A stretch of DNA of 64,000 nucleotides from Acidimicrobiales bacterium (GCA_029263215.1 JAJCXY010000126.1:15114-79113), one strand, 5' to 3'; positions 55,731 through 60,112 are shown, numbered from the stretch's first letter. Translations and numbers: made by a program. The notes: generated by a model not told the origin, from the sequence alone.

Positions 55731-56513
55731 ATGGATGAGTTGCAGGTCACCGAAGCAGACGGAGTTGCCACCGTCACGATCAATCGCCCTCATGTGCGAA
55801 ATGCCATCCCCCCAGCTGGGTGGGACACCCTGCGGTCGATATTTGTAGATCTCGGGTCTCGCGACGATGTCCGCTGCGTCGTGCTCACGGGGGCGGGTGA
55901 AGACTTCTGCTCAGGAGCCGATGTGGGCCGAACCGACGATGTCACCCGCGACCGTGACACCCACCCCATGCAGAGGATGCGCATCATCACGGCCTGCTGT
56001 GAGGCCCTGTACGAGATGCCCAAGGTCACCATCGCCCGCGTCGATGGAGTGGCCGCGGGAGCGGGGCTCAACATGGCGTTGGCGTGCGACCTCGTGCTTG
56101 CTTCTGACCGGTCCCGGTTCAGCGAGATCTTCGCCCGCCGCGGCCTCAGCGTCGACTTCGGCGGCTCCTTCCTGCTCCCTCGCATCGTCGGCATGCAGAA
56201 GGCCAAGGAACTCATCTTGCTGGCCGACGTGATCGACGCCACCGCGGCTGGCGAGATGGGTCTCGTCAACCGTGTGGTGCCGGTCGATCAACTCGACGAC
56301 GTGGTGGCGGAGTGGGCGGCGAAGGCGGCCGCTGGTCCACCGCGGGCCATCGCGGTGAGCAAGGCTCTCTTGAACCGGTCGTTCACTTCGACCCTGCACG
56401 ACGCTCTAGACGCGGAGGGCCTGGGCCAGACCTTCCAGTTCACCACCGCCGACACCCGTGAGGCGATGCTCGCGTTCATCGAGAAACGAGACCCCGAGTT
56501 CACCGGGCGGTGA
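55731..56513 (+). CDS. Enoyl-CoA hydratase/isomerase
   Basis: FCSGAD, GVAAGAGLNMALACD, GLVNRVV, AFIEKRDPEFTG. Confidence 0.93.
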   Translation: MDELQVTEADGVATVTINRPHVRNAIPPAGWDTLRSIFVDLGSRDDVRCVVLTGAGEDFCSGADVGRTDDVTRDRDTHPMQRMRIITACCEALYEMPKVTIARVDGVAAGAGLNMALACDLVLASDRSRFSEIFARRGLSVDFGGSFLLPRIVGMQKAKELILLADVIDATAAGEMGLVNRVVPVDQLDDVVAEWAAKAAAGPPRAIAVSKALLNRSFTSTLHDALDAEGLGQTFQFTTADTREAMLAFIEKRDPEFTGR

Positions 56514-57166
56514 ACCGGGCTGTGTCACACGACCCCAATAGGGTCGACCCCATCGGCACCTCATCACCACCGCTCTACGGACTCGACATCGAGACCGACA
56601 CCACGATCAACGGTCTCGACCCCGAAGTGGCCGCGGTGGTGGCGGTGGCGATCACCGGTGAAGATTTCGAACTGGTATTCGATGGTGCAGAGGCCGACAT
56701 TCTCGCCCACACCGACGCCGCCCTCGCCCGCTTACCCGCCGGCGTGATCGTCACCTGGAACGGAGCATCGTTCGACTTGCCGTTCCTGGCCCAGCGGGCC
56801 GCAAAGCTCGGCTGCGAGCTGGGTCTACGACTCCAGCTCGATCCCACGATCTCGGGTCGTCACGAACCTCTCAAAGGCCATGCTGGCTGGTATCGCGGGG
56901 CCTGGTTCGAGCATCGCCATCTCGACGGCTACCAGCTCTTCAGAGCCGACGTCGGGGTCACGTTGGGGCTGTCGTGCGGCCTCAAACCTCTGGCCCGATT
57001 CGTGGGACTCCCCGTGGTGGAGGTCGACCGCGAACGCGTCCACGAGCTCTCCGATGCCGCCCGCCGCGAATACGTGGCGAGCGACGCCCATCTGGCCCGC
57101 CTGCTGGTGGCCCGCCGTCGCGCCGCGCTCAGGGCGGTGGATCGACTCGATCAGCTGATGGGCTGA
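56510..57166 (+). CDS. Stand-alone 3'-5' exonuclease, DEDDy/RNase H-like (PolB proofreading type)
   Basis: ExoI LDIETD, ExoII WNGASFDLPFL, ExoIII YVASDA. Start uncertain. Confidence 0.85.
   Translation: MNRAVSHDPNRVDPIGTSSPPLYGLDIETDTTINGLDPEVAAVVAVAITGEDFELVFDGAEADILAHTDAALARLPAGVIVTWNGASFDLPFLAQRAAKLGCELGLRLQLDPTISGRHEPLKGHAGWYRGAWFEHRHLDGYQLFRADVGVTLGLSCGLKPLARFVGLPVVEVDRERVHELSDAARREYVASDAHLARLLVARRRAALRAVDRLDQLMG
56523..56544 (+). promoter_or_regulatory. PafBC/RecA-NDp-type promoter for the exonuclease
   Basis: TGTCAC-acgaccccaa-TAGGGT (spacer exactly 10). Confidence 0.72.
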
Positions 57167-58155
57167 TACCCGGCCACCTCGTGGTGAGGGGTGTCGAGAT
57201 AGACCTTGGCCTCGGGAGCACCACCGAATTTTCCGTGGCTCCAGCGCACCTCCACATGGCCTTCCACGATGCGGGGTTCGTTGGTTTCCCGGTCGGTGAC
57301 ATCGGCTCGCCACCGAACGGTGGGCTGGCCGGCGTGTTCGCCCCAGGTGTCGAACGAGCGCAGGCGATATCGGGTGCGGAAATCCCACGGCGTGGTGACG
57401 CGATAGCGAAGAGGCTCGTCGCGGAGATCGGCGCCGAGCACGTAGTAGGGCGCAGCCTGGAGGCGCAGCAAGCGCCACAGGAATTCTTCTCGGTCGGCCC
57501 GGGTCTTGGCTCGCTCGAGCAGGCGAGCAGAGCTCTCTCGGGCGATCTCGAACGCCACCAATTCCCAGTCGGATCTGAGCTCGGATGGCCACCGCCCCCT
57601 GAGCTCTGATCGGAGCTGCTTACGGTTGTCGGTGGTGAGTTCGGTGACAAGCTCGGGAAGGCTCGACAGGCCGACATGGGAGCGAACCTCTGTGTAGAGC
57701 TCCTGATAGGACTGGGGCGCGACTTCGGCATACCAGTCGGCGGTGTTCTTGGCCCGCTCGGCGAGGGTGCGGTCGAACATGTGCCACGGCGACGCGTTGT
57801 GCAAGATGTTGGATCCGTACTTGCAGCTGATGAGGTATACGTGATCGACGCGAAGATCGGCCGGTATCTGTTCGTAGGCCGGCGGACGATGCGGACCCTT
57901 CCACTCCACGAGCCAGGGAGCCCGGCCCCTCAGGCCGTCGTCGGCACGACTGAAGACGCAGCCGTTCTCCCACGCGGTGCCGAACACGTCGTGATGTCGA
58001 CCCTCGGCGAAGGCGTCGTCGAGTCGGTCGTAGACGGAGTCGTCGACATTGATGATGAAGCGGGGCCGAGCCGCCAGGGCGCGTTCGAGATCGCGAAATC
58101 CGAACAGGCCGAGGCCGGTGACGATCTCACTTATCTCGGTGCGAATGTCGGCCAC
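57151..58155 (-). CDS. Putative PD-(D/E)XK-fold endonuclease (PD...SxK variant, restriction-enzyme-like)
   Basis: P98-A-D100-LRVDHVYLI-S110-C-K112; last gene of the methyltransferase operon; TAGTG coupling to the upstream gene. Confidence 0.6.
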   Translation of the reverse strand: MADIRTEISEIVTGLGLFGFRDLERALAARPRFIINVDDSVYDRLDDAFAEGRHHDVFGTAWENGCVFSRADDGLRGRAPWLVEWKGPHRPPAYEQIPADLRVDHVYLISCKYGSNILHNASPWHMFDRTLAERAKNTADWYAEVAPQSYQELYTEVRSHVGLSSLPELVTELTTDNRKQLRSELRGRWPSELRSDWELVAFEIARESSARLLERAKTRADREEFLWRLLRLQAAPYYVLGADLRDEPLRYRVTTPWDFRTRYRLRSFDTWGEHAGQPTVRWRADVTDRETNEPRIVEGHVEVRWSHGKFGGAPEAKVYLDTPHHEVAGYQPIS

Positions 58156-58496
58156 TAGGACGTTTCTAAGCGATGGGCCACCGCTCCCGCAAAGAGCCAG
58201 GTGAATTGGAGTTGGGCACCGATGAGTTCCGCGGGTAGATCATCGTGGCTGTAGACCGACTTGCCGTCGTGTACGTCGATGCCGGTGCCGGTGGCACGGA
58301 TCCACGCAACCGTGGCATCGCCCCAGCGCTCCTCGAGCAGGGCTTCGCGAATGGTTTCGGCCTGAGAGCCAAGGAGCGTGGGGTCAGACCGGGCGACCAC
58401 CTCGAGGGCGAGTACCCGGTGCAGGAGTTCGATGTCGTCGGCCAGCAGGACCGACGCCGGTTCGGTATGGACAACGGCGTAGGCGACCGTGGCCAT
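58155..58496 (-). CDS. Hypothetical 113-aa protein in the methyltransferase-nuclease operon
   Basis: One-base start/stop overlaps on both sides; no recognisable HTH. Confidence 0.75.
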   Translation of the reverse strand: MATVAYAVVHTEPASVLLADDIELLHRVLALEVVARSDPTLLGSQAETIREALLEERWGDATVAWIRATGTGIDVHDGKSVYSHDDLPAELIGAQLQFTWLFAGAVAHRLETS

Positions 58497-60025
58497 CAGC
58501 TCGGTCGGTGAGCGAGATCTTCGAACCGCTCGATATCGGCATCAGTCCAGAAGCCGGCCATCGGGACCGACTGACCTCCGGCGTATTCGCGGAGTCGGGC
58601 CACACCGGCGGCGTCGAACATCTCGATCGCGTCGAAGACCTGGTCTGGTTGTACGGCACGCAGGGCCTTGTCGCCCTCGCTGTTGGCCTTGGGCAGGTTG
58701 GACGTGAGCACCAGGACACGGCTCGGGTTCTGGGGTTCGTCGGTGGCCCTCAGCACATGGATACGACCGAGCGTCTTCCACAAGGTGTCGGTGCGCATCA
58801 GGCCCGGGCGTACGGTGGTGAACGCGCCGGAGACGTCGACATACCACTGGCCGCCGTCGGTGTCTTCGACGAGGAAGTTGAATTGGACGCCGACCTTGGG
58901 GATCTTTACCGGAGACTTCAGGATCTGGAATCCTGCATCCTCGATCACCTTGGCTGCTATGTCGTGGGCCTTCTTGCCCTCGCTGGTGGCGCGGGCCTGG
59001 AAGAACTCCTGGCGATCAGCATCATCGGCCAGCGTCTCGAAGAGGGGCTCGGTGCCGAGCACCTCCACGGCCCGGAGCCGGGGCCGGGCCCGCTCTGCGT
59101 CGACGCGAGCCTGGGCTATCTCGCAATACGACTCATCGAGATCGAAGCCGAACCCACGCCGGCCGGTTCGTTCGGCCGCAACGAGGGTTGACCCCGATCC
59201 GAGGAAGGGGTCGAGAACCGCATCGCCTTTGTAGGTGTAGAGGTCGATCAGGCGCCTGGGGAGCTCCACCGGGAAGGGAGCGGGGTGCTGAACCCGCCGC
59301 GCCGACTCGGGGCTGATCTTCCAGACATCGAGAGTTGCTTCCATGAAGTCGTCGGCCGACAAGGAACTCTCGTGGGGCAGGTCTCTTTCGACTCGACCCT
59401 TCGCCAGTGCCCGGTCGAAGCGGCCCTTACTCGCCACGATCACCCGCTCGGTGAGATCGCGCAGCACGGGATTGGTGGCCTTGCGATACGAGCCCCATGC
59501 GACCGAGCCGGTGGCGCCCTCCGCCTTCTGCCAGATGATCTCCCCCCGTAGCAGGAGACCTAGATCGTCCTGGAGGATCGAGATCACGTCGGCCGAGAGG
59601 CTCCGATACGGCTTGCGGCCGAGGTTGGCGACATTGATGGCAATTCGACCACCCGGCTCGAGCACTTCCACACATGACTTGAAGACGTCGTGGAGCATCT
59701 GGAGGTAGTCGAGATAGGAGGTGGGCACGCTGGGCACCGACCCACGCGTGCCGGGGTCGCCCGTCACCGCCAACTCGTATTCCTTACCGACGAAGTAGGG
59801 CGGCGAGGTGACCACCAGCGCCACACTGTTGGAAGGGAAGACCTCGGCGATCTCGCGACTGTCTCGCCGGTGGATCGATCCGACGTCGGCGGGGATCACA
59901 TTGATGGTGTCGTCCGCGGAGATGTCTGGCGCGATGAACCGCTCGTAGAACCCTGACGAATCATGGCTCTCACGCCGGCCCACACCGAAGGCCGTGGTGG
60001 CGGTTGACTTCCTACGTTCAGTCAC
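58496..60025 (-). CDS. Beta-class amino DNA methyltransferase (probably N4-cytosine) with an extra C-terminal PD-(D/E)XK-like domain
   Basis: Motif IV TSPPY precedes motif [18 protein letters not shown]; about 170 extra C-terminal residues. Confidence 0.88.
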
Positions 60026-60090
60026 TCAGTTGCTCCGTGGTCGAAAAGTGATCCTAGGCGGGCACAGGTCCCCCATCGGACTTCTCGAGC

Positions 60091-60112
60091 ATCCTGCCGA
60101 CAAGGTGTGACA
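60091..60112 (-). promoter_or_regulatory. PafBC/RecA-NDp-like promoter for the methyltransferase operon
   Basis: Minus strand gTGTCAC-accttgtcgg-CAGGAT. A second -10 (TAGGAT) lies at 60051-60056. Confidence 0.55.

Follow-up and report, generated by a model that had tools for sequence, protein, structure and literature searches.

A candidate damage-regulated, restriction-like module built on a near-universal DNA methylase in Acidimicrobiia

Gene organization of the locus

The window, a 64,000-nucleotide stretch of DNA from an Acidimicrobiales bacterium, carries a row of three minus-strand genes that encode a beta-class methyltransferase (MT509), a small acidic protein (P113) and a candidate endonuclease (P334), and that converge on the gene of a DEDDy 3'-5' exonuclease (Table 1). 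The initial annotation had described the three genes as overlapping by one base at 58496 and 58155, and the last of them as overlapping the exonuclease gene by 16 bp (57151-57166). The coordinates agree with both statements, and the motifs that it named (SPPY, PAD-x9-SCK and the DEDDy set) were all seen in the translations. With its one-base overlaps, P113 is translationally coupled on both sides. Composition is even, and the gene neighbourhood is common to related loci down to ~50% identity. Both observations, together with the lack of P334 relatives in phage, plasmid and viral-contig collections, bear out the suggestion that the locus is long-resident.

Table 1. Genes and putative promoters of the MT509-P113-P334/exonuclease locus, in window coordinates
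Feature	Position	Strand	Basis
MT509, beta-class SPPY methyltransferase	58496-60025	-	ORF call, Pfam
P113, small acidic alpha/beta protein, 113 aa	58155-58496	-	ORF call
P334, candidate endonuclease, 334 aa	57151-58155	-	ORF call
DEDDy 3'-5' exonuclease, mechanical GTG-started ORF	56510-57166	+	ORF call
DEDDy exonuclease from proposed leaderless ATC start	56552-57166	+	Motif spacing, Pfam
PafBC/RecA-NDp-type promoter, exonuclease gene	56523-56544	+	TGTCACACGACCCCAATAGGGT, TGTCAC-N10-TAGGGT
PafBC/RecA-NDp-type promoter, MT509-P113-P334 operon	60112-60091	-	TGTCACACCTTGTCGGCAGGAT, TGTCAC + 10 nt + CAGGAT

The methylase and its small partner gene

Residues 68-305 of MT509 match Pfam N6_N4_Mtase (E 4.5e-38), and the protein matches the PADLOC type II methylase model MTase_II PDLC03350 (E 3e-79) and PDB entry 2zie (E 1e-30). 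In the translation SPPY precedes DPFLGSGST, which is the beta-class order. The catalytic SPPY motif is kept in 62/62 and 21/21 orthologues, and suggests N4-cytosine methylation. The catalytic domain (~residues 1-320) is followed by an extra C-domain (~335-509; 58499-59023) that had been labelled a degenerate nuclease domain. We could not confirm this label, and the leads behind it are all sub-threshold; an alignment of the C-domain (A2) contains no invariant D, E or K. A report on marine Acidimicrobiia metaepigenomes describes, in its accessible part, CGCG as methylated in all genomes examined, and CGCG is our candidate target site for MT509. The assignment is weakened by its indirectness and by a second class-wide motif in the same paper, BAAAA (m6A).

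P113 had been described as having no recognisable motif, and we likewise found nothing in four libraries, including Pfam, PADLOC and NCBIfam. Each of its 301 homologues is unnamed or called hypothetical. The AF2 model (pLDDT 89) contains strands and helices and had no match in a fold search against PDB (best E 0.42); neither the four libraries nor the model gave any resemblance to an HTH controller protein. In 20/21 genomes the P113 match lies directly after a long-form methylase match on the same contig, the exception being one genome (G193) in which the two lie on different contigs.

P334 as a candidate endonuclease

Judging from its sequence and predicted structure, P334 is a candidate endonuclease of an unannotated family, which comprises 680 representative clusters at E ≤ 0.001 and returned nothing from Pfam, NCBIfam or PHROGs. 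Its invariant residues (alignment A1) include P98, D100, D104, S110, C111 and K112, and further along E298, H300, E302, R304, W305, E315, K317 and D321. In the AF2 model (pLDDT 93.2), D100 lies directly before a strand and K112 in the next strand, and the invariant E302-x12-E315-A-K317 motif is on a second hairpin; alignment and model together place an invariant acidic/Lys/His cluster on two beta hairpins. The PADLOC model REase_II PDLC03456 matches residues 301-323 (E 0.0012), and this match recurs in 25/30 members of the family (best E 5.6e-5), with no match to other PADLOC families. We favor a nuclease role because of the PDLC03456 match, the placement of D100 and K112 and the invariant motif of the second hairpin.

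The first reading had P334 as a PD-SxK nuclease. The PD-(D/E)XK superfamily is defined by an alpha-beta-beta-beta-alpha-beta core with D...(D/E)xK. The PAD-x9-SCK motif of P334 does fall on two consecutive strands of the model, but the fold did not find a counterpart in PDB at E ≤ 0.001 (best Foldseek E 0.04), and HinP1I and BbvCI were among the matches only at E ~0.3 and TM ≤ 0.2. The structural matches at E ≤ 0.001 were ten phage proteins, all uncharacterised, of which the best had E 1.9e-9 at a TM of ~0.5. It is improbable, in our estimate, that P334 is not a nuclease and instead reads DNA in its methylated or unmethylated state, or partners the methylase in a structural or regulatory capacity, with motifs that bind DNA or a ligand. 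Such a role would agree with the lack of a nuclease family or fold match, with structural relatives that are all uncharacterised phage proteins and with the Ser found at the canonical acidic position of the first motif; it would leave unexplained the invariant cluster on the two hairpins, the recurrent restriction-enzyme-model match and a strict dependence on the methylase (see below) that fits a toxic activity.

The exonuclease and its putative AUC start

The exonuclease carries the DEDDy motifs DIETD, NGASFD and YVASD (Y-x3-D) and matches Pfam RNase_H_2 (25.2 bits, cut-off 22; E 1.8e-5) and DNA_pol_B_exo1 (24.7 bits, cut-off 23; E 1.8e-5). Its promoter falls inside the GTG-started ORF, and the real start is therefore probably the in-frame ATC at 56552. 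An in-frame ATC 6-8 nt after the -10 hexamer is present in the window and in 30/33 loci, and in eight loci the reading frame lacks any ATG, GTG or TTG ahead of the catalytic Asp. This pattern suggests that the exonuclease is translated from a leaderless mRNA starting with AUC. To our knowledge AUG and GUG are the start codons of leaderless mRNAs, and the conserved AUC start, if real, would be an exception to that rule.

Damage-type promoters

Both transcription units had been placed under TGTCAC-type promoters like those of comM and yraN, a proposal that we confirmed with one qualification: the -10 hexamer of the methylase promoter, whose GTG start lies 65 nt downstream, is CAGGAT rather than TAnnnT. 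The exonuclease promoter is an exact match to the motif, in which TGTC(A/G) is followed after 11 nt by TAnnnT as the -10 hexamer. Four TGTCR-N11-TANNNT sites occur in the window against 0.53 expected, a count reached in 0/100 shuffles, and two of them precede comM and yraN. Genome-wide, the strict motif TGTCA[CT]A[CA]C-N7-[TC]ANNNT has 21 sites, the methylase promoter among them. The genes behind it include recA, uvrB, a UvrD/HRDC helicase, rmuC, comM, yraN, an SNase nuclease, two DUF222 proteins (one also with HNH) and a WYL/HTH protein; 11/21 sites precede genes for DNA repair, recombination or nucleases, a WYL regulator or MT509. WYL-domain matches number five in this genome, including a tandem pair on one contig (C56), and one of the five is shown as HTH_11+WYL.

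The suggested link to a DNA-damage-type promoter is supported by the sharing of the motif with recA and uvrB and by its retention in related genomes. In 44/62 P334-linked loci it lies upstream of the methylase at a distance of no more than 400 nt, compared to 2/20 methylase genes from genomes that lack P334, and in 26/34 related loci it lies upstream of the exonuclease. The spacing is that of the mycobacterial consensus, tTGTCRgtg-8nt-TannnT, given in the accessible part of PMC5656591. The repair genes that share the motif, the WYL proteins, the published spacing and the difference between 44/62 and 2/20 argue for damage control of the operon. It is made less secure by the 18/62 linked loci and the 13/13 unlinked P334 genes that have no motif, and by the C that opens the -10 hexamer of the window's own methylase promoter.

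Distribution and linkage

The methylase catalytic domain is present in 134/162 good genomes (146/201 in the whole class sample) and in 96/103 class genera sampled, and P334 in 36/162 good genomes, with 37/201 listed in the class sample. The 37th match, in G057, was treated as spurious (E 2.8e-4 over 47 residues). All 36 good matches are in genomes with the methylase, and no genome was found to have P334 alone, whereas ~110 of the 146 genomes with the methylase lack P334. One genome outside the class (G475) has both genes. This is the asymmetry of restriction-modification, in which the nuclease is never without its methylase and the methylase may stand alone.

A neighbourhood survey confirmed that the genes co-occur in other genomes, as had been anticipated. 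The methylase lies directly upstream of P334 on the same strand in 60/69 loci with enough flank and is unlinked in 9/69; the genomes with an unlinked P334 have the methylase elsewhere (5/5). A convergent exonuclease is found within 2 kb in 33/76 loci, and three genomes (G088, G132 and G144) have a co-directional exonuclease-methylase-P334 arrangement. The motif in 26/34 loci and the linkage in two gene arrangements speak for including the exonuclease in the proposed module. As for the proposed three-component cassette, the operon structure is upheld, but the methylase is near-universal in the class and so does not count as a gene of the cassette; to this methylase, P113, P334 and the exonuclease are add-ons that can be separated.

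Mean pairwise identity of P334 is 0.54 across 62 loci, and its pairwise distances correlate with those of the methylase (rho 0.58, reached in 0/500 permutations). A further rival reading is an ordinary, recently acquired type II cassette with a chance likeness to damage promoters. The gene order (methylase, small ORF, candidate restriction enzyme) and the strength of the PDLC03350 match would suit such a cassette, which we nevertheless regard as highly improbable: the spread of the methylase over the class genera, the common neighbourhood and the 44/62 loci with a motif shared with recA and uvrB already contradict it, and the even composition and the lack of P334 relatives in mobile-element collections point the same way.

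Proposed function of the module

We tentatively favor, with a probability of about 0.45, a restriction-modification-like module that is old and fixed in the chromosome, sits on a housekeeping methylase and is under PafBC-type damage control. MT509 would methylate a short site, possibly CGCG, chromosome-wide, with P113 as an accessory subunit attached to the long-form methylase, and P334 would be a metal-dependent endonuclease whose action depends on that methylation, in the simplest form by cutting the MT509 site when unmethylated. In most linked loci the operon would be read from the recA/uvrB-type promoter (TGTCAC with its -10 hexamer), such that single-stranded DNA signals from damage or phage replication could raise both methylase and P334 activities. 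The convergent exonuclease, with its like promoter and leaderless AUC start, may resect the 3' ends produced. This reading is favored because of the asymmetric co-occurrence, the methylase-P334 linkage and the one-base gene overlaps. It is weakened because P334 belongs to no recognised nuclease family or fold and matches the restriction-enzyme model over only ~23 residues, shows a degree of conservation and a vertical inheritance that are unusual in a restriction enzyme, is without relatives in the phage, plasmid and viral-contig collections, and is unlinked in some loci.

The main rival, which we judge somewhat unlikely, is a methylation-keyed repair or recombination module in which P334 would use or correct the MT509 mark and the exonuclease would excise, under recA/uvrB-type induction. 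The other genes of the promoter set, which are for repair and recombination, suit this well, as do the strong purifying selection on P334, its vertical inheritance, its lack of mobile-element relatives, the linkage of the exonuclease in two gene orders and the overlap of methylase and nuclease-candidate genes, which resembles dcm-vsr. However, if the methylase created a need for repair, the repair enzyme would be expected in about as many genomes as the methylase (134/162); P334 is not so common (36/162), and it showed no similarity to Vsr, MutH or other repair nucleases in Pfam, in Foldseek against PDB or in further searches; nor do any of the unlinked P334 genes (0/13) have the damage motif. 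A bolder proposal, unlikely in our view, is that P334, P113 and the AUC-started exonuclease form a novel DNA-processing pathway, induced by damage, that reads a class-wide methylation mark and sorts resident from foreign, or old from new, DNA during recombinational repair, through a nuclease fold for which no related structure has been solved. As far as we know, this lineage lacks a MutS/MutL system.

Should P334 prove to be a nuclease that depends on methylation and is under PafBC-type control, as the restriction-modification-like reading has it, the DNA metabolism of the class would have taken in a restriction-like enzyme as a fixed and damage-regulated part. Two sizeable unannotated families (P334 and P113) would gain a function, and the class-wide methylation of marine Acidimicrobiia metaepigenomes would be assigned a gene.

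Comparison with known systems

PvuII-type systems are orthodox type II restriction-modification systems in which the methylase is a beta-class N4-cytosine enzyme and a third, small gene is present. The locus resembles them in having a beta-class SPP(Y/F) methylase that adjoins a candidate endonuclease never found without it, and a small ORF in the unit. It differs in the near-universality of the methylase, in a P334 that belongs to no named restriction enzyme family, in a P113 that does not resemble an HTH controller, and in its vertical inheritance, damage-type promoter and genes that are unlinked in some genomes. CcrM is the class-wide beta-class methylase of Alphaproteobacteria and has an extra C-terminal domain; the MT509 family is likewise beta-class and conserved class-wide, and many of its members carry an additional domain at the C-terminus. 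However, MT509 is not a CcrM equivalog (46.6 bits against the NCBIfam cut-off of 830), its C-domain is unrelated by sequence search, and it has SPPY, not the DPPY that is the motif of N6-adenine enzymes. In dcm-vsr, whose two genes overlap, and dam-mutH, a housekeeping methylase is accompanied by a nuclease that acts by methylation state, much like the pairing proposed here, but no resemblance of P334 to Vsr or MutH was detected in sequence or in fold, and P334 occurs in far fewer genomes than its methylase.

With the mycobacterial PafBC/RecA-NDp regulon, as covered in the accessible part of PMC5656591, the genome shares TGTC(A/G) 11 nt before TAnnnT, recA and repair genes as targets, and encoded WYL/HTH proteins; bases 6-8 are CAC(CC) here and not GTG. 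We did not find a DNA methylase or restriction-modification-like operon among the regulon members described in the part of the literature covered. For Moraxellaceae, a damage regulator that also controls restriction-modification systems has already been published (PMC12392091): in the portion of that paper available, the WYL activator DdaA has both the damage response and restriction-modification and CRISPR-Cas systems under its control in Acinetobacter, and its motif is present at 27.2% of Acinetobacter restriction-modification promoters. This precedent favors a damage-controlled restriction-modification reading of our locus, where a damage-type motif similarly precedes both repair genes and restriction-modification-like genes. 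The two cases differ in phylum, regulator and promoter architecture, and the DdaA targets described there are ordinary annotated systems, in contrast to a class-wide methylase with an unannotated partner. If the favored reading is correct, the coupling of damage response and defence seen in Moraxellaceae would extend to Actinomycetota.

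Organization of the operon and family assignments

The overall observation of the initial annotation, a beta-class methyltransferase gene (MT509) followed by genes for a 113-aa protein (P113) and a 334-aa candidate nuclease (P334) and facing a DEDDy 3'-5' exonuclease gene, was confirmed. By coordinates, the three minus-strand genes are joined by one-base overlaps, at 58496 and 58155, and P334 overlaps the convergent exonuclease gene by 16 bp, as had been described. The translations bore out the motif assignments: SPPY precedes DPFLGSGST in MT509, which is the beta-class order, P334 carries PAD-x9-SCK, and the exonuclease contains DIETD, NGASFD and YVASD. 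The GC content is even over the region (0.63-0.68), in agreement with the flank-like composition noted earlier.

Features of the region and related promoter-like sites, in window positions
Feature	Position	Strand	Source
Exonuclease ORF, 218 aa	56510-57166	(+)	ORF listing
Exonuclease promoter TGTCACACGACCCCAATAGGGT	56523-56544	(+)	motif scan
P334	57151-58155	(-)	ORF listing
P113	58155-58496	(-)	ORF listing
MT509	58496-60025	(-)	ORF listing
MT509 operon promoter TGTCACACCTTGTCGGCAGGAT	60112-60091	(-)	motif scan
GNAT acetyltransferase	60114-60851	(-)	
Fourth site, TGTCAC-N10-TAnnnT (TGTCACCCTCGAGGATTATCTT)	52385-52406	(-)	
Further strict site	30834-30855		strict pattern
Further strict site	31923-31944		strict pattern

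Pfam assigned MT509 residues 68-305 to N6_N4_Mtase (E 4.5e-38) and matched the exonuclease to RNase_H_2 and the PolB exonuclease domain (E 1.8e-5 each), and PADLOC identified MT509 as a type II methylase (E 3e-79). The Pfam scan was empty for P334 and also for P113, the protein in which no recognisable motif had been seen. NCBIfam added nothing, its CcrM equivalog scoring 46.6 bits on MT509 against a cut-off of 830, and Rfam and sigma-70 scans over the region yielded no matches. Directly upstream of the operon promoter lies a gene for a GNAT acetyltransferase, matched to the Rv0428c C-terminal type at E 2.8e-22. Of the related loci, just the two closest, L001 and L032, have it.

Distribution and inheritance

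A profile search of 1.84 billion representatives recovered 680 representative clusters of P334 at E <= 0.001, and more than 2526 relatives were counted at 90% clustering when only the 8000 candidates with the most words in common were scored. Among the matches listed, every relative was named 'hypothetical', and those with a taxon in the name were mostly Acidimicrobiia or Acidimicrobiales, with one reading Acidobacteria. No remote relatives were found among the 150 matches listed, all of which were family members or fragments.

We fetched 80 P334 loci for a neighbourhood survey, and the proposed co-occurrence of the genes in other genomes held. In 60 of the 69 loci whose upstream flank was long enough, a methylase gene lies directly upstream of P334 in the same orientation. 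Of the 76 with a long enough downstream flank, 33 have a convergent exonuclease gene no more than 2 kb away, and in 30 it overlaps or lies at most 120 nt off. The methylase C-terminal domain (residues ~335-509 of MT509) is encoded in 57 of the 60 linked loci and P113 in 37. Nine loci have P334 without an adjoining methylase; all five such genomes tested carry a full-length methylase orthologue elsewhere. The closest related locus, L001, has a P334 of 96% identity and an identical gene order. Its record is titled 'uncultured Gammaproteobacteria bacterium', while nearly all other relatives have titles naming Acidimicrobiia, Acidimicrobiales or Actinomycetota, and the title looks like a labelling oddity.

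The methylase, counted in its long form (with the C-domain) and its short form (catalytic domain only, residues 1 to about 315), occurs in 146 of 201 class-sample genomes, in 134 of the 162 good genomes and in 96 of 103 genera. P334 was matched in 37 of the 201 (36 of the 162 good genomes); the match in G057 (E 2.8e-4, 47 residues) is probably spurious, and the genomes of all 36 good matches have the methylase. P113 was found in 21 class-sample genomes, 17 of them with P334, and directly follows a long-form methylase match in 20, the two being on different contigs in G193. The exonuclease was found in ten, seven of them with P334, and three genomes (G088, G132 and G144) have the co-directional order exonuclease-methylase-P334. 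A phylum sample of 301 genomes, which includes genomes flagged unpublished, contained P334 in 2 further genomes outside the class and the methylase catalytic domain in 41 of the 301; one of the two, G475, has P334 plus an unlinked short-form methylase. One family outside the class (f42) had the catalytic domain in all 20 of its sampled genomes and four other families in a single genome each, and the domain was not found in most other Actinomycetota families of this sample.

Across 62 loci, the pairwise identity of P334 correlates with that of the methylase (rho 0.58, matched by none of 500 permutations); the means are 0.54 for P334 and 0.69 for the methylase. No relatives of P334 were found in phage records, plasmid records or IMG/VR. 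The long residence suggested at the outset is upheld. In this picture a housekeeping methylase is accompanied by separable accessory genes that are inherited vertically, and the system is not a mobile cassette.

A damage-type promoter

The two promoters have the same spacing as the published mycobacterial consensus, tTGTCRgtg-8nt-TannnT (PMC5656591). Transcription is predicted to begin about 6-8 nt past 60091(-) for the operon and at about 56551/56552(+) for the exonuclease. The pattern TGTCR-N11-TANNNT occurs four times in the window, compared with 0.53 expected, and four or more occurrences were reached in none of 100 shuffles. The fourth site is followed 55 nt downstream by a 117-aa ORF. 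A stricter pattern, TGTCA[CT]A[CA]C-N7-[TC]ANNNT, has 21 sites in the whole genome (contigs C41, C47, C83, C84, C99, C100, C109, C118, C119 and C130), and we identified the downstream ORFs by Pfam. These include RecA, UvrB, a UvrD-type helicase with an HRDC domain, RmuC, ComM and YraN, in line with the resemblance to the comM and yraN promoters noted initially, as well as an SNase-type nuclease, two DUF222 proteins (one also with an HNH domain), MT509 and an HTH_11+WYL regulator, which may regulate itself. The other ORFs encode an HTH_23 protein, a phosphoribosyltransferase-domain protein, a cytidylyltransferase-like protein, a LysM protein, a QueG-like Fe-S protein and three proteins without a family; one site was unscanned and one is at a contig end. 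Altogether 11 of the 21 sites precede repair, recombination or nuclease genes, the WYL regulator or MT509. At seven of the 21 a start codon lies 6-7 nt past the -10 hexamer, the geometry expected of leaderless mRNAs. Five WYL-domain matches were found in the genome, including a tandem pair. We concluded that the motif probably defines a damage regulon like that of PafBC/RecA-NDp.

The motif was located no more than 400 nt ahead of the methylase gene in 44 of 62 P334-linked loci and upstream of the exonuclease in 26 of 34, compared with two (only one convincing) of 20 methylase genes, ten long-form and ten short-form, from genomes without P334, and none of 13 P334 genes not adjoining a methylase, some with short flanks; the motif was defined in this one genome, and a variant in distant families may escape the pattern. 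The promoter thus appears to accompany the methylase-P334 operon and the exonuclease, not the methylase alone, and the predicted damage link of the operon is well supported by this comparative evidence.

A putative non-canonical start of the exonuclease

The exonuclease promoter sits within the GTG-started ORF, and an in-frame ATC lies 7 nt past its -10 hexamer (window 56523-56554). In the upstream regions of related exonuclease loci (L001-L051), an in-frame ATC is found 6-8 nt past the hexamer in 30 of 33, and in eight loci the stretch from the upstream stop codon to the catalytic Asp contains no ATG, GTG or TTG in frame. Given the conserved spacing and the loci lacking a canonical start, translation of the exonuclease appears to begin at the AUC of a leaderless mRNA; among the papers listed by one literature search on such a start, none seemed relevant from its title or abstract.

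P334 as a candidate nuclease

We aligned 30 P334 sequences, 41-77% identical to that of the window, and found 46 invariant positions in two clusters, the first with P98, D100, D104, S110, C111 and K112 and the second with E298, H300, E302, R304, W305, E315, K317 and D321. In the AlphaFold2 model (mean pLDDT 93.2, pTM 0.88), D100 stands just ahead of strand 101-103, K112 is part of strand 107-113, and the second cluster forms another hairpin, E302-x12-E315-A-K317. PD-(D/E)XK variants with Ser for the second acidic residue are known from the Cfr10I/NgoMIV group, and the modelled placement of D100 and K112 is compatible with such a core.

Foldseek of the model against the PDB gave no match at E <= 0.001 (best E 0.04), two restriction enzymes appearing at E about 0.3 with TM <= 0.2. 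Against predicted viral structures there were ten matches at E <= 0.001 (best E 1.9e-9, TM about 0.5), all uncharacterised, those with an organism name being mostly from cyanophages or uncultured phages. The PADLOC family REase_II PDLC03456 matched the window protein once and weakly (E 0.0012, residues 301-323) and, over the EAK motif, 25 of the 30 members, which matched no other PADLOC family; no true PDLC03456 members were found among 301 Actinomycetota genomes. Searches of PDB sequences with the single protein and the profile gave nothing below E 0.1, and Pfam at E <= 10 gave only scattered chance matches on the 30 members, PF09556 not being among them. The atlas offered one lead, a viral cluster of which 10% carries RE_HaeIII (score 0.94). 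Eight longer family members contained no informative fusions by Pfam; one has a generic methyltransferase domain, probably through a chimeric call. The conserved clusters, their modelled placement and the PDLC03456 matches together suggest that P334 is likely a nuclease.

P113 and the methylase C-domain

For P113, 301 homologues were found, unnamed or 'hypothetical'; its model (pLDDT 89) contains strands and helices and had no match in the PDB (best E 0.42). The C-domain alignment contains no invariant acidic or lysine residue, so any nuclease ancestry of this domain is predicted to be non-catalytic. Its atlas neighbours, at scores of 0.90-0.92, are hypothetical proteins of 144-194 aa that stand alone, compared with only 0.82 for the nuclease families MunI and PDDEXK_11. 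No credible relative was found among PDB sequences, the matches below E 0.01 being TPR-repeat proteins only, with no significant stretch. By hhalign the C-domain is related to neither P334 nor P113, and complex prediction of the C-domain with P334 and P113 as partner scored 0.00, which is evidence neither way. Several long-form methylase matches, including those in G023, G088, G129, G132 and G200, have one in-frame TGA; this and the stand-alone C-domain-like proteins suggest that some genomes may encode the C-domain as a gene of its own.

Methylation target and mechanism

SPP(Y/F) is the signature of N4-cytosine methylases and DPPY/NPPY that of N6-adenine methylases. SPPY is invariant in both sets of methylase orthologues (62/62 and 21/21). 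According to a marine metaepigenome study (PMC8919816), CGCG and BAAAA are methylated in all of its Acidimicrobiia genomes, and BAAAA (m6A) was assigned experimentally to methylases whose best REBASE matches are only 25-27% identical. MT509 occurs throughout the class, is of the m4C type and lies close to a model derived from REBASE, and is therefore the natural candidate for the CGCG methylase. CGCG has an observed/expected ratio of 0.895 in this genome by palindrome statistics, a value that is not diagnostic.

The simplest mechanism to propose is a restriction-modification-like module that has become fixed and is controlled by a PafBC-type system; we give it a probability of about 0.45. Its main rival, in which a nuclease keyed to methylation serves in repair, is in our judgement rather unlikely. 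For the proposed PafBC-controlled restriction-modification-like module, the regulon of DdaA, a WYL activator of Moraxellaceae, provides a published analogue (PMC12392091).
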